From Takakia lepidozioides (Eukaryota > Plantae > Bryophyta): a stretch of DNA of 64,000 bases. A model generated the notes under the pieces. The model ran no database searches. It had not been told where the DNA came from and worked only from the letters and a program-made list of their open reading frames with translations. The DNA lies in contig CM060732.1 of assembly GCA_030704615.1 (NCBI GenBank), positions 10,850,001 through 10,914,000 of the forward strand. Reading direction: 5' to 3'. Position numbers and translations under genes: made by a program. The stretch's first letter is position 1, and each line of letters starts with the position of its first letter. Shown one piece after another: positions 1 to 22,139 of this stretch.

Positions 1-1033
1 ACAGTTGGTGTGATTTGCAGCAAATGCGCAATCCATAACTTTATAGCGTGGAAGGGGCTATTCCAGCACCTTGAGGGGCCGCCCATGGATGATTACCATG
101 AATTTAGGCGGGGACATGCGGTGGAGATTAAGAGATGGCGAGAGTATTGGTCACCTAACTATGTCTCCATCACTAGAGGCACAAGGGCAACGGCGACACC
201 AACATCTACATAAAATCTCCAACTACAAGCACTAGTAGTGGGATGAGTGGTACATGAGCTAGGAATTCCACTCAAGCTCCTACTGCAGCACCAGCACCCG
301 TGCCTGCCTTTAACCCAGTTGTGGAGTTCTTCGAGGAGTTGAGGAGAAACTACCAAGGGATAAGGACAGAAAAGTTGCGGAGCTTGCAAGAGTTCCAACG
401 AAGGTCTACTGAGAGTTTGAGGGAGGCTTACACCCGCATGAGGCGCTTGATAAACGTAACTCAAGGGGTTACAGAAGCTCAGGCAGTCCAGTTCTGGTAT
501 GGGATCCTGGACAAGGAGCTGAGGAGAAGGGTGCGGGATGCAACTCTCCTACAAGTGGACCCACCCACCTTAGCAAATGTGTTTTTGCTGGCAGAGCGGA
601 TAGAGCTCAATATGGTGGAGGATCGAGTGGTTATGGTGGGATTTGGACAGGAGACACAACGAAGTGGGGCTCCTAGCCAACAACAACCACTATCCCAACG
701 TGTTCAAGGCAACAAGGGGGCTCAGGTGAAGCCGAGGGAAGGATAGAGAGGATCTCAGATGCAGAGGTCTCTTCCTTCATTCTCAGGCCAACAACAGTCA
801 GGTGTGACTTGTTGGGATTGTGGAGGACCCCGTCAAAAAGGATTGTCCGGAGAGAGGCAAAGGGCCGGCACAGACACAGCTAACATAACTACAGTGTGGG
901 CATTGTGGATGGGCATGAGGAGGCCCATTGTTATGGCTTGCATCCTGAGCTACAGCCAAGCCAGTTCCAAGGGAACAATGGTGGCCGAGGACGAGGCAAT
1001 GTAGTCCAGAGAGGTAGAGGAGGTAGAGGGCGG
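1..1033 (+). pseudogene. gag: gag of copy B (capsid-like region, degenerate CCHC knuckles, RGG-rich), disrupted
   Basis: Near-identical to 4993-6080 (WKGLFQHLEGPPMDDYHEF, ESLREAYTRMRRLI, CWDCGGP); contains stops and frameshifts. Confidence 0.85.
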
Positions 1034-1763
1034 TGTCGCGGCCCTTTGCCTTGAGGGAAGGGGGTCGGGACACAAGAGGGGCTGCCCCTGTGGTGGGGGC
1101 AGTGGCGACAATAGATGCGGGGGCTGAAGCACCCTTGAGTGCCCAAGGCACTCAAGGAGGCAGAGGCGCTCACTAGGTGGAGCCCCGCACACCGGGTTGC
1201 GGTGGGGGTGGTTCCACGAGGAGTGGTGGTAGCTTAGTGGGTCTTAGTGGGGGTGGCATAGGACTCACCATGGGGCGGAAAACTTGTGGTGGGAGTCGTG
1301 GGGAGTCTTGGGACTCATCATGGCCCAATGGGGCCGTGGTGGGTGGGCCAAGACTCACCGCGACTCGTCACCGGGAGTCGAGGGTTTTCGTGGTGGTTCG
1401 CCATAAAATGGCAAGGTTGTTTGTAAAACCCCCGCGGACAGTCACAGAAGTATATATAGGGAGTAGTAACCCCGAGAATGGTGCAAGCCCGTTGGTGACC
1501 AAAAGCTAGTGAGTAAGCGTGCGAATCGGAGAGCGACCAAGGTGTGGGGAGCTGTTCCGGACTGCCATCGACCAAAGGGAATTTCCACTTGGCCCAAAAT
1601 TGAGAGAGGGTTCGGATGGAGGATAAAGGGGGACCGTTATGTCCAGTGAGCGCCGACGGAAACTCCGAGTGAAACCGGGCGGCCAGTTTGGGAGTTAGGC
1701 ACGACCGCATCAAAGCGAGTAACATGACTTGAAGGGGAGCTTACAAAATGACGGTGAGCGACA
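1034..1763. mobile_element. Probable solo LTR of an unrelated family inserted in copy B gag
   Basis: Ends TGTCGC…GCGACA (6-bp perfect inverted termini); flanked by GGCGG/GTCGG (5-bp TSD, 1 mismatch); gag RGG reading continues across it. Confidence 0.7.
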
Positions 1764-1814
1764 GTCGGGGTGGAGGTCGTAACCAAAACCAGGAGACCAG
1801 GTCAGGATCAAGGT

Positions 1815-2234
1815 TGTCATGGTTTTAGTCATGGTTATCTAGAATTACCTACTTCTAGTTAACTAGGACATTTTAGATATTTATATTTATATTTTGTGTG
1901 TTGGGACTTCATTTGGTCTCACATGCCAAGTGAGGTGTCGAGCCTCACTTGAGACATGGAGATAGGGTTTCCCCTTGTGAGTGTTGAGGAGGCTCATCTT
2001 CTTGTAGTTGAGCCTCCATGAGCTTCTCTCACCTCCATAGCTCTAGGTATTGAGAGGGAGTGTGTTGAGGGCTTTGTAGGGTGGATTCCTTTAGCAAGGT
2101 GCCCTTGGCTTGACTTAGTTTATGTGATAGAGTGGATTTCACTTGGAAGGACTAGGGCTTGTTCTTCATGTGATTGCTTCATGCTTTGAGAGCTTTCATT
2201 GTCTTCTACTTCTCTCATTTCTCATCTCTTATCA
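1815..2234 (+). repeat. Terminal repeat segment A1 (copies at 12399-12811 and 19228-19596)
   Basis: Direct sequence match tgtcatggttttagtcatgg…catctcttatc; differences from A2 are mostly 1-bp indels. Confidence 0.92.
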
Positions 2235-2246
2235 CTACAAGAAGAT
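2234..2246 (+). promoter_or_regulatory. Putative self-priming primer-binding site (ACTACAAGAAGAT)
   Basis: Immediately 3' of A1; exact reverse complement of 1996-2008; lacks the TGG start of a tRNA-type PBS. Confidence 0.6.
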
Positions 2247-3545
2247 CACCTTATGCTTGTTGTGAGTGCGGAGTGTAAGGATTAGTTTTGCACTTGTATT
2301 TTAAAGAGGTTGAGAGCTAGGAGAATTTAGCTCTTGTATCACAAGGCTTGCAAGGGGTTGCAAGGAAAGGTGCTCGAGTATTGCATGCACCAAGGAGTTG
2401 GAGAGCTTGAGAAGAAAGCTCTTGAGTCACAAGATTTTGCAAGGATTGTAAGGAGGAAGTCTTGTGTGTGTGGAAGCATGGATTCTAGGGTTTGAGAATC
2501 CTTTGTATGCATTATGGAGTCGATGGTGTGCGCCATGGCTTGTGGAGAGTGACTAAAGGCTTGTTAGTGCTCATTTCACTATCAAGCTAGGGTTAAGCAA
2601 GTTCAAAGTGTGGATGTTGTGGAAGAGAAGCCAAGGAGCTATATATGCTTGGGCTTGAAGACAACAAGGGCAAGCACTTGGAGAGCACTAAGAAGCTCAA
2701 GAGGTTTTGAAAGGGAGCATGTGAAGAAATCTTCCAATCATGGTGGTGTGGAGCCAAGCTTAGGGTGCCATTGGAAGGGCTTGGAGAACATGTGGTGGGA
2801 AATCCTTGAAGGGAAATCATCATTCAATGTATGCATAGCTTCACCCTAACTATGTAATGTGACAAGAGGGGGAGGCAATACTTGGCTATTCATGCTCTTG
2901 GTAGTGCGAGCTTTGTGGTGGATAGTTGACCAAGCAAGTGGTGCATGTGTGGAGCATGCTCGCTTGAGTTTGTAAGTTCAAGTTTGAGAAGGGAGCTCTT
3001 GAACTAGCAAGAGGTGAAGGCCTTTGAGATCCATTTGTGTGTGAAGTGGAGAGGTGTTGATTCATGTTATGATGAAGGAGAGCAACACATAGGCCAAGAG
3101 GTCATGAAACATGCATTCAAATGACCACGGGGAGCACATGGATGATGGATTGGTGCAAGACCCCAAATGAGGCATATGGCGTGAGAGTGGGATCCAAGGC
3201 GGATTGCTTGGGAGCATTATTGTAAGTGACAAGCATTGCTCCTACACATTGAGATAATTTGTGTTGATTTGGAGCAATTGTCAAGTGATGAGGAGACAAA
3301 TGCATGATTGCTCGGCAATGGAGATATGGTAGTTTGCAATCAAATCCCAAGGACTAGAAGGGGGATTGATTTGGTGGACAATGACTTGCAAGTTGAGTTG
3401 GACCACTCTTGGTTGCACATTGGGGTGGAAGAGAGCAAGAAGATGCCTCTTATGACCACCTAGAGACCATATTTTTGCTTGAGTAGAAGCATAGAAGTCA
3501 AGGACTTGCATTCTAGCTCTTCATTACAAACCCTAGTAGTGTATG

Positions 3546-3941
3546 CTCAGACTATACCTCTGTTAGTATACCAAACAGGAGCTTGTCCCTTTGACTATAC
3601 CTCTGTTGAGGTATCACCATATGTGAACCCTAATGTGAGACTATACCTCTGTTAGTATACCAAACAGGAGCTTGTCCATTTTACTATACCTCTATTGAGG
3701 TATCACCATATGTGAACCCTAATCAGCTCAGACTATACCTCTGTTAGTATACCAAACAGGAGCTTGTCCCTTTTACTATACCTCTGTTGAGGTATCACCA
3801 TATGTGGACCCTAATCAGCTCAGACTATACCTCTGTTAGTATACCAAACAGAACCCTCATTTTACTATACCTCTGTAAGGTATCAACATAAGGGACCCTA
3901 GCACCTCAGACTATACCTCTGTTAGGTATAACAAACAGGAC
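3546..3941 (+). repeat. Tandem repeat (~90-bp unit, ~4.5 copies, two ACTATACCTCTGTT subunits per unit) in the 5' leader of copy A
   Basis: Repeated gactatacctctgttagtataccaaacaggagcttgtcc…actatacctctgttgaggtatcaccatatgtgaaccctaat. Confidence 0.9.
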
Positions 3942-4786
3942 TTATTTTAAGGCCTTTAGGATTGTTTGGAAGATATTTGAGGGCCCTTGGAATTTGGAGA
4001 CTGGACCTCTGAGGTTTCCAGTGGAGGACTTAGCCTTCGAGGAGCTTTGGTGGACAATGTTGAAGAGCTCTTGAAGGATTGATTGAGGGATATTGAAGGA
4101 TACTTGCCACGGCCATACAAGCGAGATAGAGATAGGAGAGAGGGAGAGTGGGAGAGTGGTGGATGAGAGCATTCTGGGGTTAGGAATTGCTTTAGTTTCT
4201 CTTCTCCATAGTCTTTCACCCTCTCTGTAGGCCAAAACCTTTCCGTAGGTGGAGGCAAGAGTCAGTCCGGGTTTGGGCTGGGGTGTCCTTGCAGGAGCGA
4301 CACTGTGGAGTGTTTTTTGTGTGGGGGAGTTGTTGTCTTGATTTTCTTGTGTTTGGATCCCCTCCACACCTGCATGCTTGACTGTGCGCCATGTTAGCTT
4401 TGTGTGGGCGCTTGTTTTCATAGGAGGTTGGTCCGGATTTGATCACCGGCCAATCCTAGAGTATGCTGTCGGTGGTGAGGCTGGAGTGATGACCAGCAAG
4501 ACCACCAGTGTTTCTTCTATGGTGAGGCTGGGTTGATGACCAGCAGACCATAGGAGTGCTTGCGGTGGATGCAGGTGCAGGTACAGGTCTACGTTAGAAA
4601 CCTATTATTCCTGCTTGAACCAGTAGCCGCAACAGGTTCTTTACCCGGTTACCTTGTAGAAAGTGGGGATTAGAGACAGGTTGACAACCGGTTGGGTTGT
4701 GAGTTTTCATCACGGAGGGTGCCACCAGCTGCTGAGGGAGTGCCGGTACAAGCACCAGCGATACTAGTGGGTACACAAGACAAGGT

Positions 4787-6354
4787 GTGCGGTTTAGGCC
4801 ACTTTCACCTTCAGTGTCTTCTGAGGAAGGTTCAGACTCGGAGTCAGGAGGATTCTCGCCGAGGGTGCAAGTCATTTCCGTGCCATTGTTGTGGGACACG
4901 ATGGAGGAGATGTATGGAGCTACCAAGGGGCCACGTAGGTACTCTGGAGCTGTGGGCACCATCGAGCTTGATGACTTTATACAAGAGTTTGACAGTTGGT
5001 GTGATTTGCAGCAAATGCGCAATCCACAACTGTTTACGCCCTTTATGGCGTGGAAGGGGATAGGGGCTATTCCAGCACCTTGAGGGGCCGCCCATGGATG
5101 ATTACCATGAATTTAGGCGGGGACATGCGGTGGAGATTGAGGAGTGGCGAGAGTATTGGTCACCTAACTATGTCTCAATCACTAGAGGCACAAGGGCAGC
5201 GGTGACAACAGCAGCTACACAAACATCTCCAACTACAAGCACTAGTAGTGGAACAAGTAGTGCCGGCACTTCTGCAGGTGGTACCAGTTCAAAAGTGTGC
5301 TACTACTCCTCCTGCCACAATTACAACACATGTGCCTAGATTCAACCCGGTGGTGGAGTTCTTCCAGGAGTTGCGGAGGAACTACCAAGGTGTACGGACA
5401 GAGAAGCTGCGAAGTTTGCAAGACTTCCAGCGCAAATCCAGTGAGAGCTTGCGAGAGGCCTACACTCGTATGAGGCGCTTGATAAGTGTGACCCAAGGGG
5501 TTACTGAAGCTCAGGCAGTCCAGTTCTGGTATGGAATTTTGGACAAGGAGCTCAAGAGAAGGGTGCGGGATGCAACCCTGTTACAAGCGGCCCAACCACA
5601 TTAGCGGATGTGTTTCTGCTGGCTGAGCGGATTGAGCTCAACATGGTGGAGGAGCGAGTTGTTACCATTGGATTTGGCAAGGACATGCCTGCACGAGGTG
5701 CAGCTGCCAGCCAACAGGTACAAGGGACTGCCCAACAGCGTGGTCAGGGGGGCAAGGTTGCCCAACCCAAGTTCCATGGAGCTTACAGGGGACCTCAGGT
5801 GCAGAGGCCGTGGCCGTGGATCTTTTGCAGGCCAACAGCAACCAGGGGTGATATGTTGGACATGTGGAGGACCCCATGTCAAGAGAGATTGCCCAGAGAG
5901 TGGCAGAAGGCCGGCACAAGCACAGCCTGCACAGTTGCAGTGTGGGCATTGTGGCAAGTATGGGCATGGAGATGCCCAGTGTTATGACTTGCACCCTGAG
6001 TTGCGCCCAGGCCAGTTCCAAGGGAACAATGGTGGCCGGGGGCGAGGTGGACCAGCCCAGAGAGGACGAGGTGGTCGGGCACGAGGTGCAGGCCAAGGGC
6101 AAGCTCAACATGGCCAAGGACGCGGAGGTCAGGGTGTTGACCAAGACATGGCCAACCGGCTTCAGCAGCTAGAGCAGAGGCTCGCTGCCATGGCTACAGC
6201 TCAGGTGGTACCGGCTCCCAGGCGGGATGGTCCACCTCCTGCTCCTGAGGGAGGAGATATGGGAGGCATGGGATTCATGTGCGGAGCAGCACTACCACTA
6301 GTGCAGGTGGAGTCTGCTGCAGCCGTGACTCGAGGAGAGCACACGAGTTCCTGA
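4787..6354 (+). CDS. gag: Gag of copy A (frameshifted in this assembly; start uncertain); two Zn knuckles and an RGG-rich nucleocapsid region
   Basis: ORF pieces 4787, 5094, 5248, 5608; CWTCGGPHVKRDC and CGHCGKYGHGDAQC; RGRGG repeats. Confidence 0.8.
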
Positions 6355-7300
6355 GCCACGAGGTGCAGAGGTGGAGGTGGAATTGGATCCACAGCGTGGG
6401 GAGGCAAGCCGTCAGGCGAGGCTTCCTCAGTCATTCACATTGGCGGAGACAGTGTCGACGCCATCCATGGCACCTAGTTCTCGCCCGACTGTTACCGAGG
6501 CGGAGGTTACTATGCCATTGGGGAGAGCTACACGTGCAGCACTGACACCTGCTACCAAGGCTAGTGCAGCCGGTGTGTTATTGGGGGCAGCCACCTCTGT
6601 GTGTCAAGCCCCACTGTTCTCGGCAACCATGATTGCGACGCCGGGGTGGGTAAGACCAGCTGCAGTGTTCAGACTAGCAGCAACACTCTGCGAGAGTGGG
6701 GAGGTCACTTCATCTTCTGCGGAGTTACTGGAAGGTGTAGTGGCAGAGGGATCCTCGGATTTGAGGGTCAAGACTGCCACGGCTGCGCCATGGCAAGCTG
6801 CAGCTGCCAGGTTGACGGAGCTGCCAGCTAGGCCAGCCTTTGAGCGCGCCATGGTGACACCTGGAGTTGTCTTGTTAGACAACCAGGAGGCATTTTCACT
6901 TTGAGTGGACCGGCAGGCAAGAAGTACCGGCCACTGCGGGTCTTGTTGGACTCAGGAGCTCAGCCACTGATGTTGGGCAGAGCTGCTATTGCAGGTTTGG
7001 GCCTCATGGAGGCGGATATGGAGCCTTGTCCTTTCCAGATACAGACATCTCTGGGAGGATCAGAGCAGGCTCGGGGCATGACACGGCGTGAGTTGGCCAT
7101 TGGACTACAACCAGATCATCCTGTAGATGGCTCAGTGATGCGAGCCAAGGCCATTGTGACAGACGCGGTCTCTTACGATGTCCTTGTTGGTGGGGCAGTG
7201 TTATATCCCATGGGCTTCACCCTGGACTTTGGGAGGAGTCAGCATCCTACAGGCCTGGATGGCAGTCAGGGGATGGTCGTCGTGCACAGCTCCCTGTGAC
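6355..7300 (+). CDS. Gag C-terminal region and aspartic protease of copy A
   Basis: VLLDSGAQPLMLG active-site motif and downstream YDVLVGG motif; continuous in frame with gag in copy B (ORF 12832-13935). Confidence 0.85.
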
Positions 7301-7629
7301 ATTCATTGGGGGTATTGCGGCTGCCCAGCGGGGCAAGATGCCAACACTAGCCGCCTTTACAGCTGCAGTTAGTTGGTGGCCTGGAGAGTTGCTGGAAGGC
7401 AATGCCCATGCAGAGGATGTGCCACCTCCAGCAGAGCAGGATGACATGCATGGTACGGCGGAGTTGCCTGCCATGGTTGCTCACACTCCATTATGGGGTA
7501 CGAGCAAGGATTTGCAGCAGGCTGCTGATGGACGGGTACAACAAGCCTGGGTAGAGCCTTCGTACCGTCAGGAGAAGAGGAGAGTGCGGTGATTGCACCA
7601 GGACCACCTCAGTTGTCGCCATTGGACAC

Positions 7630-8630
7630 CACACCTCTTGTGTGGCAGTGCCCGGATGAAGGCATATGCCTTCTGGACTTGTTTGGCGGGATCAGCACTG
7701 GATTGGCTGCAGTACTGCAGGCAGGTGTACGAGTTCGACGTTACCTGTATGTGGAGAGGGATGAGACTGCACGACGCGTCTCACTGCGCCATGTTGCTCA
7801 GTTGGTACAGCAGTACCCTGATTTGATTTGTTGCCAGTGTCTGCAGTTCGTGGATACCAACAAGCCTTGCCAGCAGACATTTCGTTGCTGGGGGCAGGAT
7901 TTGGAGCGGGTTGGCTCCATTGATCTGGTAGTGGCAGGTTGGCCCTGCCAAGGGCATTCATCAGCCGGGCATGGCAATGGATTGCGAGACTCGAGGACGG
8001 GTCTGTTTTGGGAGATGGTGCGGATTTTGCGCCACTTGCAGCTTCATCAAGCTGTATCTCAGCATACATCTGGAGAATGTGCCACTGATGGGTGATTCTC
8101 GGGCCAGGGTGATGGCCAGTGTGCATCAAGTCCGGTCGTGGCTTGGGTCAGCAGTGTTGCTGGATGCAGCTGCAGTGGGGTCACTGGGCTCATCGTCCAC
8201 GGCTATGGTGGACTAACTTGATGCCACCCGCACTGCTCAAGCGTGCATTTGATGGGGTGCAGCGGCCAGCACACCTCACAGTGGATAGCATTTTGGACAC
8301 AGGGAGGCAGTCTCAACGTGTGAGACACGATGACCGTTCGCCTTTGGCAGTGGTCAACAGGGTGGGTCAACCACGAGCAGCATTACCTACACTGCTCAGC
8401 TTCCCAGGATCCCATGCTTTTCGGGATGGTGGACCTGGCCTCTTGTGGGATAGCCAGTTGCAACAATTAGTGGAGCCCAATGCTGACGAGCGCGAGCGGG
8501 CGATGGGTTTTACCACAGGTACCACGGCGGTGCCATCTCTTTCTGAGGCATCACGTCGTCAGGTGTTGGGGCAAGCAATGGATCTCAATTGCTTGACCTG
8601 GATTATCAGCTTGGCTATGGCTGAGCAGCG
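7630..8630 (+). CDS. DNMT3-like DNA (cytosine-5) methyltransferase domain within the retrotransposon polyprotein
   Basis: Motif I LLDLFGGIST, II YVERD, IV DLVVAGWPCQGHS (catalytic Cys), VI LENV, VIII AHRPRLWWTNL, IX ERERAMGF..GTT, X RRQVLGQAM; split by 1-bp indels. Confidence 0.9.
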
Positions 8631-8913
8631 CAGAGTACGGAGTACACTTCCCTTCATGGTCTCCCTGCCTACCGAGACGGTACAGGCAGCGAGTGGGGGC
8701 GAGCAGGTGAGGACCACGAGGTGCAGGCCGCATCCATGGCACACGTGGGAGGTGCTCGAGGTTCAGAAGGAGTTGGCAGCCAAGGCGGCGGTGATGGATC
8801 AGGTTGGGGATTTTTCTCGGATTGAGGAGGTCCTCAAGGATGGGATGATGGGGCAGGATGAGACATTGTCACTGACAGAGGAGGCAGTGGTCACTGCTCA
8901 AGAGGTTGCAGCA

Positions 8914-8922
8914 TAGCAACCA
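8914..8922 (+). promoter_or_regulatory. Putative stop-codon readthrough signal UAG-CAA-CCA (UAG-CARYYA)
   Basis: Same TAG CAACCA in copy B at 15739-15747; frame after the TAG is open into RT (in frame with ORF 9043). Confidence 0.7.
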
Positions 8923-10546
8923 CGGGACGCGTCTTCTACCTCTAAGCCTGCTGGACTCAAGGTTGCAGTCACGGAGGACAACTGGGAGCCTGATGTTGGA
9001 CCTATAGTCACCGGAGGAGAGAGACGACGTATACGGCGGTTCTTGAGGGCTTACAGGAACTGCTTTGCCTTCAGTTTGAAGGACTTAGGAGCACTGAAGG
9101 GTCAAGAGATTCGCATTGAATTGGCTACTGACACGCCAATCTTTCGGAGACCCTATAGATACAGTGACATGGAGAGGTCCTTGATTCAGATGAGAACTCA
9201 GGACCTTTGGGAGGCTGGTTTGGTGGAGCTATCTGGGGGAGAGTATGCTTCAGCCACAGTGATGCCAGCCAAGAAGGATGTCTTTGGCAATTGGACGAGG
9301 AGAGACGTATGTGCGGTGATTACCGGCCTGTAAATCGTCAGACCAAGTCCGATAGGTATGCCATGCCAACACCAGAGGAGATCTTTGATGCCATTGGGCA
9401 TGCCAAGGTCTTTAGCACTTGGATTTACGATCCGGATATCACCAGTTGCCGATCAAGGAGGGCGGATAGCAAAAGACGGCATTCTGGGGGATCAATGAGC
9501 ACGGGAAGGATTGCCTATACCAGTGGCGGTTCTTACCATTGGGCTTAAGAACGCTCCGGCAGAGTTTCAGAGAGTCATGGACAGGATTCTAGCAGGGGTG
9601 GAGTTTGCTCGGTGCTACATAGATGACATCATCATCTTTAGTGCTACGGTGGAAGAGCATGAGAGACACCTTCAGGGGGTATTTGAGCGCTTGAGGGCGC
9701 ACATTGAAGTTACATCCGGGAAAGTGCAAGTTTTTCCACAACCAGATTGAGTATCTGGGTCACATGATATATCCTGGAGGATTGGGGGTACAGCAGACTA
9801 AGGTAGAGTCCATTGCACAGGTTCCACGCCCCACGGATGTGAGCCGAGTTCGAGCTTTCATGGGGTTAGCAAACTATTATAGACGGTTTGTTAAGGGATT
9901 TAGTGCCATTGCAAAGGCTCTAACCAAGCTGACCAAGGTGGACCAGGAGTGGCAGTGGGAAGATGAGCAAGAACAAGCTTTTCAAGAGCTCAAGGCGAGG
10001 TTGACCTCGGCGCCCATCTTGAGACGACCTATCAGGGGGCGTCCTTTTCAGCTGCATACAGATTGGAGCATGCTGGGGCTTGGAGCGGTGCTCACACAGG
10101 TGGATGATGAGGGAAGAGAGTTCGTAGTGGCTTATGCTAGCCGCTCGAACAACGTTGCAGAGTCTAAGTATAGCTCATATGAGGGAGAATGCTTAGCTGC
10201 AGTGTGGGCCGTGGCACACTTCAGGTGCTATCTATACGGCAATCTCTTCACCCTTGTCACGGATCACCAACCACTCAAGTGGTTGATGGAGTCAGACAAG
10301 CTTACGGGGAAGCTTGCACGGTGGGCACTCATCCTTCAAGAGTATGACTTTCAGGTGGTGCATCGACCGGGTTTGGTCAATCGCAATGCAGATGGGTTGA
10401 GTCGCAATCCATGCACGAGCCAGCAGGATGACACTGGAGCTCGGTGGCATGGTGAGACGGACGAGGAGATGGTGCCCGGATGGCATGCATCTGCATTTCT
10501 GTGTATCTTGGCAGCGGAAGGCCAGTTGGACCTGCAACAGGGATGA
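8917..10546 (+). CDS. pol: Reverse transcriptase and RNase H of copy A (frameshifted in assembly)
   Basis: RRMCGDYRPVN, GLKNAPAEFQRVMD, YIDDII; RNase H LHTDWS, YEGECLA, VTDHQPL, NADGLSR. Confidence 0.95.
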
Positions 10547-12052
10547 CTGTAGATCAAGTGTCTGAGGACCCTGAGGCCAGCAATGAGCAAGGTGGCGCCA
10601 AAGATATACATGAGGATTCAGTTGTGTTGGACTACCTCCGCACTGGAGACACTGCAGCCACTGTGACTGCCAAGGAGAGGGATCGGATCCTACAACGAGC
10701 CAAGAGGTTCAAGTGGGAGGGGACACACCTGCTCCGAGTGTGGGAGGATGGTCGAGTGAGGATTGTGCCTCACCCAACACAGCGGGCACGGTTAGTGCGG
10801 CATGCCCATGAGGAGTTGGGGCATTTTGGGGTGCGACGCACTCATAGTCTACTGCAGGGGCAGTATTGGTGGCGTGGTATGCACACAGAGGTGCAACAAT
10901 TTGTGGCTAGGTGCATGGTGTGTGACAGGGTGCGTGCTTCATTCAACGCCCCTACTCCACAATTGCACCCTCTTCCGATCATGGGATTGGGCTACAGGTG
11001 GAGTCTTGACTTCGCAGGGCCGTTGCCACTGACCATGCGCCACAACAAGTACGTGTTGGTGATGGTGGAGCACTTCTCCAAGTGGATTGAATTGGTTCCA
11101 TTGCCTGATAAGGCTAGTGAGGGAGCTGCGTATGCATTCTTGGATTGTGTGCTTAGCCGATTCGGTGCTCCAGCTGAGGTACTCACGGACCAAGGGAGAG
11201 AGTTCTTGGGGGAGTTTCAGGCTTTGTGTGACAAGGCCTTGATAGACCACCGCACCACTTCTCGGGATCATCCTGAGGCCGATGGCTTGGCAGAGAGAGT
11301 TGTTCAGACAGTAAAGAGGGGTTTGCGCAAGTATGGCTTGCAGAAGGGACACCTAGGAGATTGGGACCTTCAGTTACCCTGGTTAGCCATGGGCTACAGG
11401 TTCAGCAAGCAAGCATCACTTGCCTCCTTCTCACCATACTTTCTTCTCTTTGGCCGAGAGCCGGATTTGCCTACATCCATTCGCAGAGAAGCTGCTACAG
11501 TTCTTAACCTTGACGATCCGGACGTGTGGGCACGTGCATGTGAGCAGCGTGCAGAGTTGTTCAAGAAAGTCATGCCCATGGCTTTCGAGAACCTTGCCAT
11601 TGCACAACATCGTGATACGTTGAGGTATGCTACCATACGTGGTGGGGCTATCGTCCTGGGGTTCGGAGATTCAACCCTGGTGACTATGTTTATCTGCAGC
11701 AGACTGCTCCTACGACCTTGGATGTGACTGCAGGACGTACTATTTTGAGGGTTCGAGAGGTGTTGCCCTCAGGAGTCCTGATCTTGGAGGGTCGGGATGG
11801 CATGATTTGGAAGGACCATGTGCGTAATTGCGCGCCATGTCACCTTCCAAATGTTGATGGAAGGGTTGACCCAAACCTGGCAGTGTAGTGGTACCTGCAA
11901 GTTTGAGGTGCATGTTGTGTGGGTCTGCTAGAGGGGCAGCCACCATGCTGGTGTGTGATCAATGCTCTAGAGGTTGGCATATGGGATGCTTGACTCCACC
12001 TCTTGAGATGGTTCCTGATGGGGATTGGTTATGTCCGCATTGCATTGGATAG
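10547..12052 (+). CDS. pol: DDE integrase with C-terminal PHD finger (copy A)
   Basis: HHCC (HAHEELGH…CMVC), WSLDFAGP, LTDQGREF, GLAERVVQ; C-terminal CMLCG…MLVCDQCSRGWHMGCLTPPL..VPDGDWLCPHC, stop at 12050-12052. Confidence 0.92.
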
Positions 12053-12295
12053 TGGGAGTGGATACAACCATGGAAGGCTAACAAGAAATGCAAGGCCAAG
12101 CTACTAGGAGACCAACACACGAGATCCTGACTCAAGTTCACAGATTGCAAGACGGCAACTAACGATGGGGTTGCTCTTGTACCCGGCCTCTTGGTCTATA
12201 GAGTTTGAGTACAATAGGGACAGTGATAGAGGACTTAGTACGGCTGTGGCTATTACATCTTGTAGCTATCTGGAGTTAGAGGGACCTAACCACCA

Positions 12296-12309
12296 GCTAG
12301 GGGGGCGAT
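12296..12309 (+). promoter_or_regulatory. Polypurine-tract-like sequence before repeat B1
   Basis: GCTAGGGGGGCGAT directly before TGTGGTATAGC; equivalent tract at ~19127-19140 in copy B. Confidence 0.7.
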
Positions 12310-12881
12310 TGTGGTATAGCTTTCTAGGATTGTGTGCTTAGATTGTGTGGTGGACAGCGATGTATGTTGTTGTGGCACGATGCTTAGGTGCCGACAGCTG
12401 TCATGGTTTTAGTCATGGTTATCTAGAATTACCTACTTCTAGTTAACTAGGACATTTTAGATATTTATATTTATATTTTGTGTGTTGGGACTTCATTGGT
12501 TCACATGCCAAGTGAGGTGTCGAGCCTCACTTGAGACATGGAGATAGGTTTTCCCCTTGTGAGTGTTGAGGAGGCTAATCTTCTTGTAGTTGAGCCTCCA
12601 TGAGCTTCTCTCACCTCCATAGCTATGGTATTGAGGGGAGTGTGTGAGGGCTTGTAGGGTGGGATTCCTTTAGAAGGTGCACTTGTGCTTGACTTAGTTT
12701 ATGTGATTAGAGTGGATTGCACTTGGAAGGGACTAGGCTTGGTCAATGTGATTGCTTCATGCTTTGAGAGCTTTCATTGTCTTCTACTTCTCTCATTTCT
12801 CATCTCTTATCTAGGACTGTGTGCTTAGATTGTGTGGTGGACAACGATGTATGTTGTGGCACGATGCTTAGGTGCACGACA
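12310..12881 (+). repeat. 3' terminal repeat block of copy A: B1 (12310-12396) - GC - A2 (12399-12811) - B2 (12812-12881, 5'-truncated)
   Basis: B = tgtggtatagc…gcacgaca (~85 bp) occurs twice around A2. Confidence 0.9.
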
Positions 12882-13970
12882 AGGTCATGACCAAGGCATG
12901 GTGGATAGATTTGCCCAGCTAGAGCAACGTCTTGCTGCCATGGCCACTACTCATGTTGCGCCAGCTCCAAGGCTTGAGGTTCAAGCCCCACCTGCACAAC
13001 CTCCTATGCCTAGGGAAGATAAGATTGGTATGGGCTTCATGTGTGGAGCCGCACTTGCAGGGCCATTGCATGTATTGGACTCTGCTGCTGCTGTCACTCG
13101 AGCAGCAACGCGTGCTCCTGAGCCAAGAGGAGCGGATGTGGATTTTGATCCACAAAGGGGGGAAACAAGTCGTCAGACCAGGCTTCCACAGTCCATTACA
13201 TTGGCTGAGACAGTGCCACCTACGCCATCAATGGCACCCGCTTGCCCAAGTGTGTCAGAGGTAGAGCCACGAGTGTCATTAGGGAGAGTTGGTGTGGCTC
13301 GGGAAATGCTAGTGGGTGATGCTGCAAAACACGATGCAGCCAGTACATTGTTGGGGGCGGCTACGGCGGTTTGCCAAGCTCCATTATTTTCTGTAATGAC
13401 CATTGCAATGCCGGGGATTTGGCCAGCTGCTGTGTTCATACTAGCAGTTAGACTCTGTGAGAGTGGTGATGCATCGGCACTATCTGCGGAGATAGCAGAT
13501 AAGGTACAGTCTATGGATGCTTTGGATTCGAGGGTGAAGTCAGCCACAGCTGCGCCATGGCAAGCGACAGTTGCAAGGTTGCAGGAGTTGCCAGCTAGGC
13601 CAGCCATTGAGCGCAGCATGATGACTCCTGAGGTAGTCCTGGTGGACAATCAGGATGGAGTGTTTCAATTGGGTGGCCCAACCTGGAGGAGGTATAGGCC
13701 ACTGCGGGTCTTGTTGGACTCGGGAGCACAGCCATTGATGTTGGGGAGAGCAGCAATTGCAGGCTTGGGCCTTACAGAGGCAAATTTGGAGCCTTGCCCT
13801 TTCCAAATTCAAACATCTTTGGGTGGTTTAGAGAAGGTGCGAGGGATTACACGCCATGAGCTCTTCATTCGATTGCAGCCGGACCATCCTACGGACGGCT
13901 CAGTCATGAGAGCTTACGAACGCGATCTCTTATGATGTGCTTGTTGGTGGGGCTGTGTTGTACCCCATGG
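12882..13970 (+). pseudogene. Gag C-terminus and protease of copy B
   Basis: ORF 12832-13935 with VLLDSGAQPLMLG; homologous to 6140-7210. Confidence 0.88.
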
Positions 13971-15400
13971 ATGATTTGGGCCGGCATGGTGCAATTGACT
14001 TGGTGATAGCTGGATGGCCTTGCCAAGGACACTCTCCCGCAAGTCATGGGAATGGCTTGCATGAGGCACGATCACATTTGTTTTGGGAGATGTTGAGAGT
14101 GTTGCGTGACTTGCAGACGAGGCAACTGCAACCTCTAGCCTATATCTTGGAGAATGTTCCTCTTATGGGGGACTCTCGGGCCAAGGTTATGGCCAGTGTG
14201 CATCAGGTGCGGTCGTGGATTAGATCAGCGGTGCTATTGGATGCAGTAGCGGTGGGATCACGAGTGCATCGACCTCGATTGTGGTGGACCAATCTTGCAC
14301 CACCAGAGCTGCTCAAGAGAGCATACGATTCCATTCAACGGCCACCCAATCTCACAGTTGAGGGCATTTTGGACCAAGGGAGGCAACCACAAAGGGTGCG
14401 ACATGATGACCGTCCACCTCTAGCAGTAGTAAATCGAGTGGGGCAGCCACGTGTAGCCTTGCCTACGTTCATGAGCTTTCCCTCGTCTCATGCTTTTCGA
14501 GACAATGGTCCTTGGTTGATTTGGGACAGTGTGCTACAGCAATTGGTGGAGCTCAATGCGGATGAGCAGGCTTTACTTTGGACTTTTGGGAGGAAATGAC
14601 ATCCTACAGGCCGGAATGGCAGTCAGGGGGTCGACGTGCACTGCTCCCAGTGCGGTTTATTGGGAATGTAGCGGTGGATCATAGGAACATGATGCCCACA
14701 TTGGCTGCATTCTCAAGGGTGGTGGCTTGGGGTGGTGACCTCTTGGAGGGCAATGGCCATGCAGATGATAGGCCACCACCTGATGAGGACAAACAATTGG
14801 CATACAAGGCTGAGTTGCTTTCTCATGTTCTTGTGCATAGCTCATTGTGGAATACAGTTGGGGATTTGCAGTGAGTGACAATTGCAAGCCAGTGTGTGCA
14901 GCAAGCATGGCATGATACCTTTCCATCGGTAGGTGAGGGGAATTCAGTTACATCACCTGGACCTCCTCAATTAGCTCCATTGGACACAATGCCTATTATC
15001 TGGCAACAACCTGACTCAAGCATTTGTTTGCTAGAACTGTTTGGAGGCATGAGCACTGGGCTTGCAAGAGTGTTGCAAGTTGGGATTAAAGTACGAAAGT
15101 ACTTGTATGTGGAGAAGGATGAGATAGCTCGGCATATTTCTATGTGCCACGTTGCCTTGCTCACACACCAGTATCCTGAGCTGCTGCCTTTCTCAGCAAT
15201 TCAAGGGTACCAAAAGGCCTTGCCAGCAGACATTACTTTGTTGGGGGAGCAGGCAATGGGTTTTGCCACGGGCACTACAGCTGTGCCAGCTCTATCAGAG
15301 GCATCACGACGCCAGGTGTTGGGTCAGGCAATGGATCTCAATTGCTTGACATGGGTCATAGGCTTGTGCATGGCTGAGCAATGGATATTGCAAACATTGG
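13971..15400 (+). pseudogene. DNMT3-like domain of copy B, internally rearranged (motifs IV-VIII placed before motif I)
   Basis: 13971-14570: IAGWPCQ, ILENV, HRPRLWWTNL; 15030-15253: LLELFGGMSTG, YVEKD; 15253-15380: AMGFATGTT, RRQVLGQAM. Confidence 0.85.
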
Positions 15401-15741
15401 TGGCTACTTCTGTACTTCCATTGGATATTGCACCATCTCTGCTAACCAGGACGGTGGAGGCAGTGAGTGGGGGCGAGCACAGGATGATGGGGTGCAAACA
15501 CCCATGGCAGATGTATGATAAGATGCGCAAACAAAGGGAAATTGGATCTCTCAAGCAGCAGTATGAGGAGTGAGGAGAGCCATACACTGAGGATCAGTTG
15601 GAGGCCAAGGTGACCAATGTTTTTGAAGAAGTTGAGAATGTTTCTTCCCCAGAGGATGTTCTCAAGGTGGCTATGGCGGAGCAAGTGGAGGCTACGTCAC
15701 GGTCAAGGTGGGTAGATAAAGCCCAAGAGGTTGCTATCTAG

Positions 15742-18700
15742 CAACCAAAGGATGCGTCTCCTACTTCCAAGCCTGGTGTACCCAAGGTTGCAGTCACTGA
15801 GGACAACTGGGAACCAGATGTTGAACCTACTGTCACCGGAGGAGAGAGGCGGAGGATCCAGCGATTTCCAAGGGCTTATAGAAATTGCTTTGCCTTCGGT
15901 TTAAAGGATTTGGGGAGTTTGAAGGGCCAGGAGATTTGGATTGATTTGGCAAGTGACACGCCAATTTTTCGAAGGCCCTACAGGTATAGTGATATGGAGA
16001 GGTCTTTGATCCAGTCACGGACTATGGAGTTGTTCGAAGCTGGATTGGTGGAGTTGTCTGGCGGGGAGTATGCCTCGGCAACGATGATGCTAGCTAAGAA
16101 GGATATCTATGGCAATTGGATAGAAAGGAGGATGTGTGGGGATTACCGTCCTATGAACCGTCAGACTAAGTCCAATAGATATGTCATGCCAACTCCAGAG
16201 GAAATCTTTGATGTCATTGGGCATGCAAAGGTATTTAGTACATTGGACTTACGATCGGGTTATCACCAGTTGCCAATCAAAGAGGTTGACAAGCAAAAAC
16301 GACATTCTGGGGGATTAACCAGCATGGGAAGGATTGTTTGTACCAATGGCGCTTCCTACCATTTGGGTTGAAGAATGCTCTTGCAGAGTTTCAGAGGGTC
16401 ATGGATAGGATTCTTGTGGGGCTAGACTTTGCCCGGTGCTACATTGATGACATCATCATCTTTAGTGCTACGATTGAGGAGCACGAGAGACACCTTCATA
16501 TGGTGTTTGAGCGTTTGAGAGCGCATGGGTTGAAATTGCACCTTGGGAAGTGTAAGTTCTTCCACAACCAGATTGAGTATCTGAGCCACATGATATACCC
16601 TGGAGGATTGGGTGTTCAAAAGACGAAGGTGGAGGCCATTGCACGCATTCCACGCCCCATCGATGTTAGCAGAGTTCGTGCTTTCATGGGGTTGGCAAAC
16701 TACTATCGACAGTTTGTCAAGGGATTTAGCAGCATTGCAAAGGCTCTTACCAAGTTGACCAAGGTGGGTCAGGAGTGGCAGTGGGAGGAGGGGCAGGAGG
16801 AAGCCTTTGAGGAACTCAAGGGCTCGATTGACTTCTGCGCCTATTCTGAGGCGGCCTATTTGGGGGCGGTCTTTCGAGCTACATACGGATTGGAGTATGC
16901 TAGGGATTGGAGCAGTGCTCACACATGTGGATGATGAGGGAAGAGAGTTCGTAGTGGCATATGCTAGCCGCTCGAACAATGATACCGAGACAAAGTATAG
17001 TTCTTATGAAGGGGAGTGTCTAGCTGCAGTATGGGCAGTGGCTCATTTTAGATGCTACCTCTATGGCAATCTCTTCACCTTTGTCACGGATCACCAACCA
17101 TTGAAGTGGTTGATGGAGTCAGACAAGCTTACAGGGAAGCTTGCACGGTGGGCACTTATGCTTTAAGAATACGACTTCCAGGTGGTGCATCGAGCCGGAA
17201 TAGTCAATCGGTATGCGGATGGATTGAGTCGCAATCCATGCACAAGTGAGCTTGATGATACAGGAGCTCATTGGCATGGTGAAACGGACGAGGAGATGGT
17301 GCCAGGATGGCATGCATCTGCCTTTTTATGCATTCTAGCAATGGGAGCTCAAGGTGGTCCATCCCATGTGATTAGTCATAGAGATAATATGCATGACGAT
17401 CCAGAGATCAGTGAGGAGCTTGGTGGTGCTAAAGATGTACATGAAGATTCAGCAGTGTTGGCCTACCTTCATACTGGAGAGACAGTAGCCAGTGTGACTG
17501 CTAAGGAGAGAGATCGGATCCTACAACAAGCCAAGAGGTTCAAGTGGGAGGGGACTCACCTACTCCGAGTATGGGAGGATGGACGAGTGAGGATTGTGCC
17601 TCATCCAACACAACGAGCGCGATTGGTATGCCATGCCCATGAGGAGTTGGGACATTTTGGGGTGCGGCGCACTCATAGTTTGCTGCAAGGACAGTATTGG
17701 TGGTGGGGCATGTACACGGATGTGCAACAGTTAGTGGCAAGGTGCATGGTGTGTGATAGAGTGCGGGCTCCTTTCAATGCACTTACTCCACAATTGCATC
17801 ATTTACCCATTATGGGTTTGGGCTATCGTTGGAGTCTTGACTTCGCAGGCCCATTGCCATTAACGATTCGCCATAACAAGTATGTGCTGGTGATGGTGGA
17901 ACATTTCTCCAAATGGATTGAACTGGTGGCATTGCCTGACAAGGCAAGTGAGGGGGCTGCGTACGCATTCTTAGATCGAGTGCTTAGCCAATTTGGTGCT
18001 GCCAGCCGAGGTACTCACGGACCAGGGGAGAGAGTTCTTGGGGGAGTTTCAGGCTTTGTGTAAGCAAGCCTTGATAGATCACCGCTACTTCTCGGGATCA
18101 TCCCGAGGCTGATGGCTTGGCTGAGAGGGTTGTGTAAACAGTCAAACAAGGCTTGCGCAAGTATGGCTTGCAGAAGGGACACTTGGGAGATTGGGACCTT
18201 CAGCTACCTTGGTTGGCCATGGGCTACAGATTTAGAAAGCAAGCATCACTTGCCTCGTTCTCGCCTTATTTCCTTCTCTTTGGCCGAGAGCCAGATTTGC
18301 CTGCATCTATTCGCAGGGAGACTGCAGTAGTCCTCAACCTTGATAATCCGGATGTGTGGACACAAGCATATGCCCAGCGGGCAGAGTTGTTCAAGAGAGT
18401 CATGCCTATGGCTTTTGAGAACCTTGCTATTGCCCAACACCGAGACACATTGAGGTACGTCACTATACGTGGATGAGGATATCGGCCAGGTGTTTGGCGT
18501 TTCCATCCTGAGGACTATGTGTATCTGCAGCAGACAGCGTCTACGACCTTGGATGTCACAGCAGGTCGTGTGATTCTAAGGTCCGAGAGGTGTTGCCTTC
18601 AGGAGTGCTGATTCTAGAGGGTCGAGATGGCATGGTATGGAAGGACCATGTGCGCAATTGTGCGCCATGTCACCTTCCACATATGGATGGGAGGATACAT

Positions 18701-18877
18701 CCCAACCTTGCAGTGGTACCTGCAGGGTTGCGTTGCATGCTATGTGGGCATGCTGGTGGTGCCGCGACCATGTTGGTGTGTGACAAATGCTCAAGGGGGT
18801 GGCACATGGGATGCTTGACACCGCCACTTGAGGAGGTTCCTAGTGGAGAATGGTTGTGTCCACGATGCCTTGGATAG
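15742..18877 (+). pseudogene. pol: RT-RNaseH-integrase-PHD of copy B (stops and frameshifts)
   Basis: YIDDII, LHTDWS, WSLDFAGP, PHD CMLCGHAGGAATMLVCDKCSRGWHMGCLTPPLEEVPSGEWLCPRC; premature TAA at 17164-17166 and ~18135. Confidence 0.92.
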
Positions 18878-19140
18878 ACGTAGTGGGGCATGACAGGGGT
18901 GAGGTTGACAAATGATCCAAGGTCTAGCTAACGGGAGTTCAATGCCATGGACACCCAATTGAAGCCATGGATTACAGGAAGGCGAATAACGATGGGGCTA
19001 CTTTTGCACCCGGCCTCTTGATCTATTGCCTTCAAATACTGGGACTTGGGCGATTGATGACCAAGCGATGATCTTATTGGGATGGATACTTGTCAGCTAT
19101 CCGGTGTTAGAGGGACCTAATCACCAGCTAGGGGGACGAT

Positions 19141-19683
19141 TGTGGTATAGCTTTCTAGGATTGTGTGCTTAGATTGTGTGGTGGACAGCGATGTATGTTG
19201 TGGCACGATGCTTAGGTGCACGACAGCTGTCATGGTTTTAGTCATGGTTATCTAGAATTACCTACTTCTAGTTAACTAGGACATTTTAGATATTTATATT
19301 TATATTTTGTGTGTTGGGACTTCATTTGGTCTCACATGCCAAGTGAGGTGTCGAGTCTCACTTGGGACATGGGGATAAGGTTTCCCCCCTTGTGTGAGGA
19401 TGGAGGAGGCTCATCTTCTTGTAGTTGAGCCTTCATGAGCATTTCTCACCTCCATAGCTCTAGGTATTGAGAGGGAGTGTGGTGAGTGCTTTGTAGGGTG
19501 GATTCCCTTAGCAAGGGTGCCCTTGGCTTGACTTAGTTAATATGATTGAGTGGATTCATGAGTGGAGGGTTTCCATTATGTTCACTTTCATTATCTATTG
19601 TGGTATAGCTTTCTAGGATTGTGTACTTAGATTGTGTGGTGGACAACAATGTATGTTGTGGCACGATGCTTAGGTGCACGACA
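19141..19683 (+). repeat. 3' terminal repeat block of copy B: B1 (19141-19225) - GC - A (19228-19596) - AT - B2 (19599-19683)
   Basis: Same B-A-B arrangement as copy A, with a full-length B2. Confidence 0.9.
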
Positions 19684-20052: not shown

Positions 20053-20094
20053 ATTGAGTCAGCAAGAACCCTACATCCATTTATCTTTTGGATG

Positions 20095-20149
20095 AATTTT
20101 TTTTCGGGTGAATTGTTTTGGGGTTGTTGGTTTTTCCATGAATTGTCAT

Positions 20150-20184
<35 letters not shown>

Positions 20185-20552
20185 CCCCCCCGAATGTGCC
20201 AGATTAAGGTGTCGTCAATGACATCTTAATTCCCAGTACGAGTTGGCACATGACAATTCATGGAAAAACCAAAAACCCCAAAAAAATTCACCCAAAAAAT
20301 TTCAACCCAAAAAAATCTGATGGCGTTGCCTTGGCGGTAAGGCGGTGTGTGTGCAGGTGCTAGGGATTAAGGTGTCGTCAATGACATCTTAATTCCCAGT
20401 ACGAGTTGACACATGACAATTCATGGAAAAACCAAAAACCCCAAAAATTTCAACCCAAAAAAAATCTGATGGCGAACAAGCCTTGGCGGTAAGGCGGTGT
20501 GTGTGCAGGTGCTGGGGATTAAGGTGTCGTCAACGACATCTTAATTCCCAAT
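20095..20552. repeat. Inverted plus tandem repeat block with poly-T and palindromic ATTAAGGTGTCGTCAATGACATCTTAAT cores
   Basis: 20100-20150 is inverted relative to 20248-20300; ~155-165-bp unit repeated ~2.3 times. Confidence 0.75.
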
Positions 20553-22139
20553 ACGTGTTTTGAAATTTTTATTTATAAAGCACGAGTTCACCTCTCTGCC
20601 TTCTGTAGATTTGGATGTCAGCCTCTCTCTCAACCTTGGATACCTGGAAAAATGACAAGTAACCCCTCCTCAATCAACAAAGCAATGTGGATTCATTGTT
20701 GGCAATATACATTGCACTTTCATAATTGATTTGCAAGCAAGACTATCATGGTTTAAGGGATTTCGGAGCTCGGGGGATTTCGGAGCTACTACTACAAAAC
20801 AACTTTGTATTATTGCATTTATTTCATTCATCCATGTCTCATTCATCATACAAACATTCATTCATTCATCATCCGCCATTCATCCCAGCAGCAACCATAA
20901 CCGAGCTTGTAATACTGGCCACTCTGCGCAGTCTTCTAAGTTGAGTAGGCGTCCGCGGTTATAGGTGGGCAGATCCTGAAGCGTGAGCAGATTTCTGCTC
21001 ACGGAATTTTCTGCTCGCAGGATCTGCTCACAGAATAGCATCCCCCAGGGCGGTGTTCAGAATGACATCTGGTAATTGACAAGCATACACCTTTCTGCCT
21101 CGGTTGTCCCACCATTGACTGGGGTCAGAAAAGTATTCATTTCACAGTTTCTCCTCATCTCTGTTACCTGTTTTTGGATACTACACACATGTATATATAA
21201 ATTAACAAGTACACATATCAGAGTAAATAAGGAAGACAGCGGGGGAACACTGGTATTGTGGCTGGTATGAAAAAACTGATACCGGCCTAGTCTGATATAT
21301 GACAAAGTATTTTCCCAAACGATACCAGTTTGGTCTAGTATCTAATACCAGTGCATATACCAATAAAGAATGCCCCTGAGGTGCAAGCAGGGAGAGCACC
21401 TGTGAGAATGCTAACTATTCAGGGAAGACAACACCAAAAAATGAGGAATTGAAGGGCATGCATGTGGAAAAAGATGGTAATGTGTACCAAAATCATAGGA
21501 AAGGAGGAATAGCGAAGAAGAGTGACAACAAAGGAACCATCAACACTTACCAAGATGTCACATGTGAAACATGCACAGGTCTGGAAAATAAACAAAGAAG
21601 TGGAGAAAGTACATGTGTGAGGGCAGTGCATCAAAGCACTAACACTTGGCAACATGAAGACAAAGCTAAGATGGTTAAGGGTACAAAAGATGGACCAAAA
21701 TCTGAACAGAAGAGGGACAAACATGGGTTGGACATTGAAGGAGCTACTCAGATAGAAAGGGAGACAATGAGTGGGGACTTATCTTTTTTTATGAAGACTG
21801 GGAGAAGTTCAGGTGCTGAGGACCTACACATAAAAGAAATGCATCAGCAAACAAAGGTTGGACTGCAGTCATGAAAAGATGACACTGAGGCAAGGGAAGT
21901 TCAGATTGCATGTCAAGATGCACATGACAAGAGAGGAAGCAAGCAAGTAGGGTCCTAGAAAGTCATGACAATCTGAAAACAGTGACAGAGCAAGCATGAG
22001 GGCAACATCTATGATAAACCAGCATGGGCACGAGATTCTTGAAAGAGGAGCAAGGCCATCAAGGCAGGGCATCAGGACTTTCATGTTTCAATGGTGTTTT
22101 CGTGTGCTTTCAATGGTGCTTTCATGTTTCAATGCTGCT

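Follow-up and report, generated by a model that had tools for sequence, protein, structure and literature searches.

A DNMT3-like cytosine methyltransferase as the last ORF1 domain of a Ty3/gypsy retrotransposon with split terminal repeats in a moss

Retrotransposons carrying a cytosine methyltransferase (DNMT) have been described before, and the closest of them is KnitGypsy-Dnmt3 of the alga Klebsormidium nitens, in which gypsy domains are combined with an unrearranged, intronless Dnmt3-related DNMT under purifying selection (PMC5890265). According to a figure legend its repeats follow the DIRS-like order A-coding-B-A-B (de Mendoza et al. 2018, PMC5890265), and its DNMT is described as part of the Pol ORF together with reverse transcriptase (RT) and RNase H. 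SymbioDIRS-Dnmt3 and SymbioLINE-Dnmt (PMC5890265) are also retrotransposons with a cytosine methyltransferase, with tyrosine-recombinase or LINE backbones, and EpiLTRs carry a DNMT4-related enzyme together with DAM and a chromodomain (bioRxiv 10.64898/2026.05.21.726589). The SymbioDIRS-Dnmt3 domains were reported to methylate CG in yeast, and the KnitGypsy-Dnmt3 enzyme gave no methylation there, a result which its authors deemed inconclusive (PMC5890265). The question of what a retrotransposon gains from an enzyme that would ordinarily silence it dates from 2018, and it has persisted partly because the hosts Symbiodinium and Klebsormidium are hard to manipulate. The available portions of PMC5890265 contain no mention of Marchantia, PHD fingers, self-priming, readthrough or a palindrome. 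Those of PMC12344493 and bioRxiv 2026.05.21.726589 speak of "streptophytes" and do not name land plants, and the supplementary trees could include bryophytes. Five Marchantia DNMTs are listed in the accessible text of PMC5784723, none of them of this kind and none a DNMT3; the accessible parts of PMC11982613, PMC10952607, PMC9940879 and bioRxiv 363937 hold nothing on such elements. The literature searched, mostly at the level of titles and abstracts and outside Repbase, theses and subscription journals, yielded nothing on DNMT-gypsy elements from bryophytes or chlorophytes, nor on split repeats in gypsy elements. The retrotransposon with a DNMT is a known kind, and as far as these sources go, the land-plant form with the enzyme in ORF1 is new, earlier descriptions having been found from algae only.

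The window, the whole stretch of 64,000 nucleotides from Takakia lepidozioides analysed here, contained two nested copies of such an element, and the coordinates of their features are collected in Table 1. Copy A lay within the gag of copy B, and the empty site of this insertion was seen in a contig from a further copy, which joined position 1791 to 12880. The domain order of copy A was Gag-protease-DNMT-stop-RT-RNase H-integrase-PHD. The order protease-RT-RNase H-integrase, a DDE integrase, a polypurine tract (PPT), TG...CA ends and a short target duplication are those of Ty3/gypsy elements, while two identical terminal LTRs were replaced by split repeats. The order A-coding-B-A-B was seen in copy A, in copy B as far as visible, and in loci L026, L034, L038 and L040, three of which had clean 4-bp duplications (AAGG, CATA, AATC), the left end of L026 being decayed. 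The 2.7-kb leader of copy A also held a tandem repeat of 89-92 bp units at 3545-3949.

Table 1. Features of the two element copies, by position in the window
Feature	Position	Strand	Evidence or remark
Copy B, gag part left of copy A insertion	1..1814	+	5' end outside window; insert at 1034-1763
Copy A, full-length Ty3/gypsy element in gag of copy B	1815..12881	+	TG...CA ends, 4-bp target duplication AGGT
Copy A, repeat A1 (5' terminal repeat)	1815..2234	+	95% to A2
Copy A, predicted RNA 5' end and self-primer	1996..2008	+	complementary to primer-binding site, 13-nt perfect match
Copy A, predicted primer-binding site, self-priming type	2234..2246	+	tRNA-type TGG absent
Copy A, gag, broken	4901..6170	+	two zinc knuckles (5854-5892, 5941-5982); Pfam, motifs
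Copy A, aspartic protease	6868..7230	+	LLDSG at 6943; weak Asp_protease_2 below cut-off; tblastn to Marchantia ORF1
Copy A, DNMT3-like C5 cytosine methyltransferase, last ORF1 domain	7646..8613	+	four frame breaks; Pfam, PDB, selection, motifs
Copy A, in-frame UAG CAA CCA, type I readthrough context	8914..8922	+	motif definition from the available part of PMC11166343
Copy A, reverse transcriptase and RNase H, broken	8983..10321	+	Pfam; best PDB match Ty3 Gag-Pol
Copy A, DDE integrase (H2C2, rve, C-terminal part)	10567..11860	+	Pfam
Copy A, PHD finger at ORF2 end	11894..12043	+	PF00628, E 2.9e-12
Copy A, polypurine tract	12299..12308	+	
Copy A, repeat B1	12309..12396	+	repeat comparison
Copy A, palindromic B1/A2 junction GACA-GC-TGTC	12393..12402	.	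same sequence as both element ends placed head to tail
Copy A, repeat A2	12399..12811	+	repeat comparison
Copy A, repeat B2, right end	12810..12881	+	first ~14 nt missing
Copy B remainder	12882..19683	+	gag end, protease, DNMT, stop, RT-RNase H-integrase-PHD, repeats
Copy B, DNMT, two adjacent blocks swapped (IV-VIII before I-III)	13973..15363	+	motif positions
Copy B, UAG CAA CCA	15739..15747	+	homologous position
Copy B, PHD finger	18701-18868	+	
Copy B, repeat B1	19139-19225	+	
Copy B, repeat A2	from 19228	+	
Copy B, repeat B2	19597-19683	+	

Compared with KnitGypsy-Dnmt3, the moss element had the same repeat order and the same gypsy domains, and its dN/dS (given below) lay under the Ka/Ks of 0.2 applied to the algal element. 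It differed in its host, a land plant instead of the alga, and in its DNMT, which shares a frame with RT but is separated from it by a stop codon, so that the two would be joined only on readthrough. K. nitens names were absent among the matches listed in both DNMT searches, and the likeness stands on the published description. An rve integrase was present and no tyrosine recombinase match was obtained in the ORFs scanned, which sets the element apart from DIRS and Ngaro. Predicted self-priming and occurrence in moss are shared with the Tf1/Sushi and plant Tcn1 chromoviruses (Neumann et al. 2019, PMC6317226, available part), but the moss element has split repeats, a DNMT, and a PHD finger in place of a chromodomain, no chromo match having been found in its ORFs. 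A PHD finger in the polyprotein is also known from Chlamydomonas gypsy elements such as Gypsy-7a_cRei, for which the available text of PMC9940879 lists no DNMT and gives near-normal LTRs.

The methyltransferase domain was recognized by PF00145 in both copies, at 7529-8092 in copy A (E 8.5e-11, 42.3 bits) and at 13910-14596 in copy B (E 1.6e-10, 41.3 bits), both passing the Pfam cut-off of 22 bits. In copy A, as the original prediction had it, the C5 methyltransferase motifs lay between the protease and RT (YIDD at 9616) in canonical order with the catalytic residues kept: I (LLDLFGG, 7670), IV (AGWPCQG, 7934), VI (LENV, 8070), VIII (AHRPRLWWTNL, 8188), IX (ERERAMGF, 8488) and X (RRQVLGQAMD, 8554). 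Its frame was broken near 7825, 7895, 8060-8070 and 8184. The same motifs had been claimed for copy B; they were indeed present, but motifs IV-VIII (13973-14567) came ahead of I-III (15007-15246), followed by IX-X, the block with IV-VIII preceding that with the protease end and motifs I-III. This block swap may be genuine or an assembly error. DRM enzymes have circularly permuted motifs, with VI-X before I-V. A DRM-like permutation was rejected for copy B, its order IV-VIII, I-III, IX-X being a swap of another kind, and copy A is canonical.

The class of the enzyme was assessed by sequence and fold. A PDB search with a Calypogeia homolog placed DNMT3A on top with 44 bits, ahead of DRM-type enzymes (at most 32) and bacterial enzymes (about 22), and a 15-sequence profile gave 49 bits for DNMT3A, 24.5 for the DRM-type (4onj) and 22 for M.HaeIII. 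The parallels to DNMT3A that had been proposed from the motifs (AHRARYFWGNL, EMERVFGF and RQRLLG) were all present in the PDB alignment. A structure model of the intact homolog P0005 (56 sequences, pLDDT 92.3) again matched DNMT3A best (E 2.5e-19). In a wide structural search this model aligned to DNMT3B with Z 28.5 (rmsd 2.6, 279 aligned), followed by M.MpeI (Z 24.9) and DNMT1 (Z 17.9), and the Atlas structure search gave DNMT3A with a TM of 0.75. Resting on these best sequence and fold matches, the element DNMT is classed as DNMT3-like, as predicted; the DNMT trees comprised element DNMTs only.

Across 24 conserved positions, the common residue of the group was kept at all 24 in copy A and at 23 in copy B, and the catalytic and SAM-binding residues hardly varied among 39 homologs of the ORF1 type and 45 of the Pol type. 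The motif IV Cys was found in 33 of the 39 ORF1-type homologs, the other 6 being gaps, and in all 45 Pol-type homologs. Between copies A and B, dN/dS of the DNMT was 0.087 (95% bootstrap 0.04-0.13, 307 codons, in-frame pieces), a rough value because dS was as high as 1.8. Similar values were obtained for RT (0.06-0.09), RNase H (0.05), integrase (0.07) and gag (0.06). The DNMT is thus under purifying selection and neutrality is excluded. Against distant loci dS was saturated, and among moss-type loci dN/dS rose to 0.51 for the DNMT and 0.40 for RT owing to decay after insertion. All 19 single-frame DNMT segments from loci contained stops (1-11 each), and copies A and B are both broken as assembled.

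Both copies carried an in-frame TAG CAA CCA after the DNMT. A stop was found at the homologous site in 29 of the 30 loci with both DNMT and RT (19 TAG, 10 TAA), the exception, L027, having GAG; these loci represent 26 distinct sequences, mostly of one family with a median identity of 87%, and are not 30 independent tests. Since the stop follows the DNMT, the enzyme is the last domain of ORF1 rather than an ordinary part of Pol, which corrects the original prediction, right though it was in placing the enzyme between protease and RT. The stop did not arise from random CAG-to-TAG decay, which was rejected with CAG at the site in none of the 30 loci. The sequence UAG CAR YYA is described as the type I readthrough signal (PMC11166343, PMC2194720, in the parts available), and the moss element shares the 3' hexamer with the tobamovirus type I signal. 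Among the 734 TAG triplets on the plus strand of the window, only 3 were followed by CARYYA, two of them being the junctions of copies A and B, where the first in-frame Met after the stop came 85 codons on, inside RT. Read-through of UAG-CAA-CCA is likely, judging from this context. In moss-type loci the stop was followed by CAA CCC ATG, an imperfect motif with an in-frame ATG; given this context, the TAA at 10 of 29 stops and the GAG of L027, Pol may also be reached by reinitiation or splicing. Gag-protease-DNMT proteins ending at that point made up 21 of 230 homologs, and most ORF1 models from Marchantia (P0007, P0009, P0016, P0032, P0048) and Calypogeia (P0003) ended 81-85 residues past the DNMT. 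In-frame stops are also described for SIRE1, Tca2 and MuLV in the sources available; that of the moss element stands instead after Gag-protease-DNMT and before RT. In two basal homologs of the ORF1 type, P0082 and P0088, the DNMT ran into RT with no intervening stop, a structure that may be like that of Klebsormidium.

The putative primer-binding site (PBS) paired with a stretch inside repeat A over 13 nt in the window and over 17 nt of different sequence in L034, lengths which were reached by none of 2000 shuffles (shuffled maximum 11). Among the 15 loci that had a 5' A, the best partner was at offset 150-162 in 11, with decay, and a tRNA-type PBS was not seen when sought by eye after A1. A self-priming PBS is predicted from this pairing, a pattern described for Tf1/Sushi and moss Tcn1 (PMC6317226, available part). 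The PBS and PPT together predict a cDNA with terminal repeats B-GC-A. In L026, L038, L040 and L043 the A2/B2 junction consisted of the CA end of A, GT and the post-PPT sequence, and the palindrome of the B1/A2 junction was identical to the outer ends of the element joined. Such a predicted cDNA, if its two ends were joined and the palindrome then cut, would give the integrated form. In the available part of PMC1180852, foamy virus integrase is described as cleaving palindromic 2-LTR junctions, that is, opening a palindromic CA..TG junction as is proposed here; the viral palindrome is made by joining the ends, whereas the moss palindrome is encoded internally and the natural cDNA ends would stay joined. 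The alternative isomer A-B-A-coding-B was found in none of the 15 loci with a 5' A, which counts against a simple symmetric circle, since a symmetric closed circle should also yield it; speculatively, a one-sided template jump would fit the missing isomer. L037 was an A-coding-B copy with target duplication ATTA, and copies ending at B1 were observed in L012 (7296-7407), L018 (4610-4719) and L037 (5904-15602); they would be products of either B1 x B2 recombination or a second mode of integration. The left ends of L009 (~7170-7450) and L010 (~6340-6620) consisted of inverted 3' UTR-PPT-B joined to the A end and PBS, possibly through autointegration or inversion.

The host of the window was examined with a BC10-like glycosyltransferase gene (59327-61003, plus strand), which grouped with Ceratodon and Physcomitrium (UFBoot 99) and next with Sphagnum (94) in a tree of 29 of 120 matches. 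On the evidence of this one gene the host is a moss, which speaks against non-embryophyte contamination. A search with the DNMT C-terminal part gave 117 matches, including Marchantia (23), Calypogeia (3), Riccia (1) and Sphagnum (3), with one bacterial MAG label (P0053, a 2.4-kb contig) and one SM label, which we take to be Spirogloea; vascular plant names were absent among the 117. A Pol-type-seeded search gave 235 matches, of which the best 120 included Monoraphidium, Haematococcus and a Chrzof1 model. Chlorophyte gypsy elements (P0151, P0181, P0184, P0214, P0218 and many unnamed) carried the DNMT between RNase H and integrase together with a PHD finger, and no description of them was found in the literature searched. 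An embryophyte lineage had been proposed, and the embryophyte host stood, but the homologous chlorophyte elements show that the lineage is not restricted to embryophytes. In the RT tree the ORF1-type elements came together in a single clade (support 1.0), at the base of which stood P0082, which lacks the stop. Distances in RT were correlated with those in the DNMT (Mantel r 0.79 for 39 rows, 0.64 for the 31 rows of the Pol type), and of 20 supported splits in the RT tree 11 recurred in that of the DNMT; both trees were without outgroup and are compatible with one DNMT capture as well as two. One DNMT tree omitted 82 unnamed Pol-type rows at random, the RT tree giving the same placement, and included about 55 wrong-frame residues in copy A, the corrected sequence being used for conservation counts and Mantel tests. 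The same architecture recurred in 44 loci from metagenomes and in liverwort and moss assemblies of chromosome scale, and with its presence in both copies this bears out the view of a heritable family domain. The IMG/VR search gave 1 weak locus. The family was abundant in sequencing runs with the host label, with 14,926 contigs on 1.4 kb (X2), a figure that is not a copy number.

Based on these features, we consider it on balance probable that the DNMT is made at Gag levels, packaged in the particle and methylates new cDNA before integration. Most ribosomes would stop at UAG-CAA-CCA and yield Gag-protease-DNMT, and a minority would continue into RT, integrase and PHD. The element RNA would prime itself with its first ~13 nt, and ordinary reverse transcription would give cDNA with terminal repeats B-GC-A, whose joined ends would form the A2/B2 junction. 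The integrase would then open the internal palindrome CA-GC-TG, leaving CA-3' ends and 2-nt overhangs. Marked by the DNMT, a new copy would resemble methylated host DNA and be shielded from surveillance or born quiet, and the PHD finger would guide integration to chromatin with unmodified H3 tails. Methylation before integration is favoured by the place of the DNMT on the Gag frame, which would put many packaged copies beside the nascent cDNA. The unstopped P0082 and P0088 and the chlorophyte DNMTs inside Pol suggest that a Gag-level dose would not be needed family-wide.

The DNMT could instead have host chromatin as its main substrate, during integration or later. With the PHD-bearing integrase it would then methylate either the target site or the newly inserted copy, and so recreate the pairing of DNMT3 with its PHD-like ADD. 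PHD fingers of the type of CHD4, PHF12, KDM5, ATXR5 and UHRF1 read unmodified H3 tails, as does the ADD of DNMT3. The best matches of the element PHD were CHD4, PHF12, KDM5A/B, ATXR5, PHF21A and UHRF1; almost every full Pol-type homolog had both PHD and DNMT (85 of 230 homologous proteins being RT-RH-MT-INT-PHD), and in these the DNMT mostly lay between RNase H and integrase and so adjoins the latter. In the moss element, however, DNMT and PHD stand on opposite sides of the stop and the protease would separate them, and we regard this action on chromatin as unlikely here. It is less probable still that the domain is kept for a non-catalytic or non-DNA role, such as binding or shielding cDNA or RNA in the particle, or RNA methylation. 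The Klebsormidium enzyme showed no activity in yeast (PMC5890265, available part), and the Pro of motif IV is substituted in the majority of Pol-type homologs, by E in 31 of 45. CpG and CWG composition within the window gave no signal specific to the element: CpG observed/expected was 0.49 in the coding DNA of copy A, close to the 0.56 of the rest of the window, so that there is neither CpG depletion nor a compositional trace of self-methylation. The yeast result and this composition also weigh against methylation of the new cDNA. But the catalytic Cys, the Glu and Asn of ENV and both Arg of RxR were kept in all 45 Pol-type homologs and conserved in the ORF1-type, and the fold is nearest to DNMT3 and not to DNMT2.

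A further reading, doubtful but with a somewhat better chance than action on chromatin, retains the methyltransferase role but has Pol made by splicing or reinitiation instead of readthrough, and derives the split repeats from a splint mechanism of the DIRS/Ngaro kind instead of end joining and palindrome cutting. It would fit the in-frame ATG that moss-type loci have directly past the stop, the gene models predicted for Marchantia and Sphagnum that join DNMT to RT, and the missing second isomer, but copies A and B have no ATG for 84 codons past the stop and a perfect CARYYA in both, and the element is gypsy-type in its PPT, PBS, DDE integrase and target duplications. The many indels of copy A, the rearrangement of copy B and the MAG label of P0053 might raise the suspicion of a gene captured only once, a nested insertion, a chimeric assembly or contamination from algae or bacteria. 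The recurrence of the architecture in metagenomes and assemblies, the correlated DNMT and RT trees, the moss grouping of the host gene, and sequencing runs of 6 studies that contain the stretch or part of it refute these explanations, which would be exceedingly improbable unless those assemblies share one artefact. Tentatively, and with more doubt than for the packaging of the enzyme itself, the family might be an ancient gypsy clade across the green lineage with a DNMT3-like writer and a PHD reader, whose bryophyte branch would have transferred the writer to the Gag frame, closed by a leaky stop, with many copies per particle pre-methylating a cDNA that integrates via the internal palindrome cut and not by its natural ends; the element enzymes of Marchantia could then be an unrecognised source of de novo methylation. 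The intact ORF1 models in Marchantia polymorpha, for which methylation mutants, methylomes and editing exist, make the question of 2018 directly testable, and the ORF1 position, putatively leaky stop and palindromic internal junction lead to specific predictions on dose, timing and the chemistry of integration. Marchantia genes of this kind that are annotated with PF00145 belong to elements, a point of importance for inventories of DNMTs.

Repeats A1 and A2 of copy A differed by 7 transversions, 0 transitions and 14 gap positions, other family contigs deviated from the window at the DNMT frame breaks, and a contig of a second organism differed from copy A mainly by C>T (33) and G>A (35), with A>G at 1 and T>C at 3 positions. 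From these differences copy A is probably young and part of its indels may be assembly error. Copies A and B were 93-97% identical in the terminal repeats, about 70% in ORF1 and about 81-84% in ORF2, a contrast that suggests recombination between subfamilies. The 730-bp solo-LTR-like insert in the gag of copy B (1034-1763) had the ends TGTCGC...GCGACA and no match among the loci. Elsewhere in the window, a poly(T) run at 20086-20559 was surrounded by repeats, inverted as well as direct, in a MITE-like structure. Two genes related to each other, at 55691-57267 (minus strand) and ~61600-62500, had leucine-rich repeats of 24 aa of the disease-resistance type, and a Ulp1 peptidase fragment at 26075-26419 and an EF-hand gene at 44856-45389 both lay on the minus strand.
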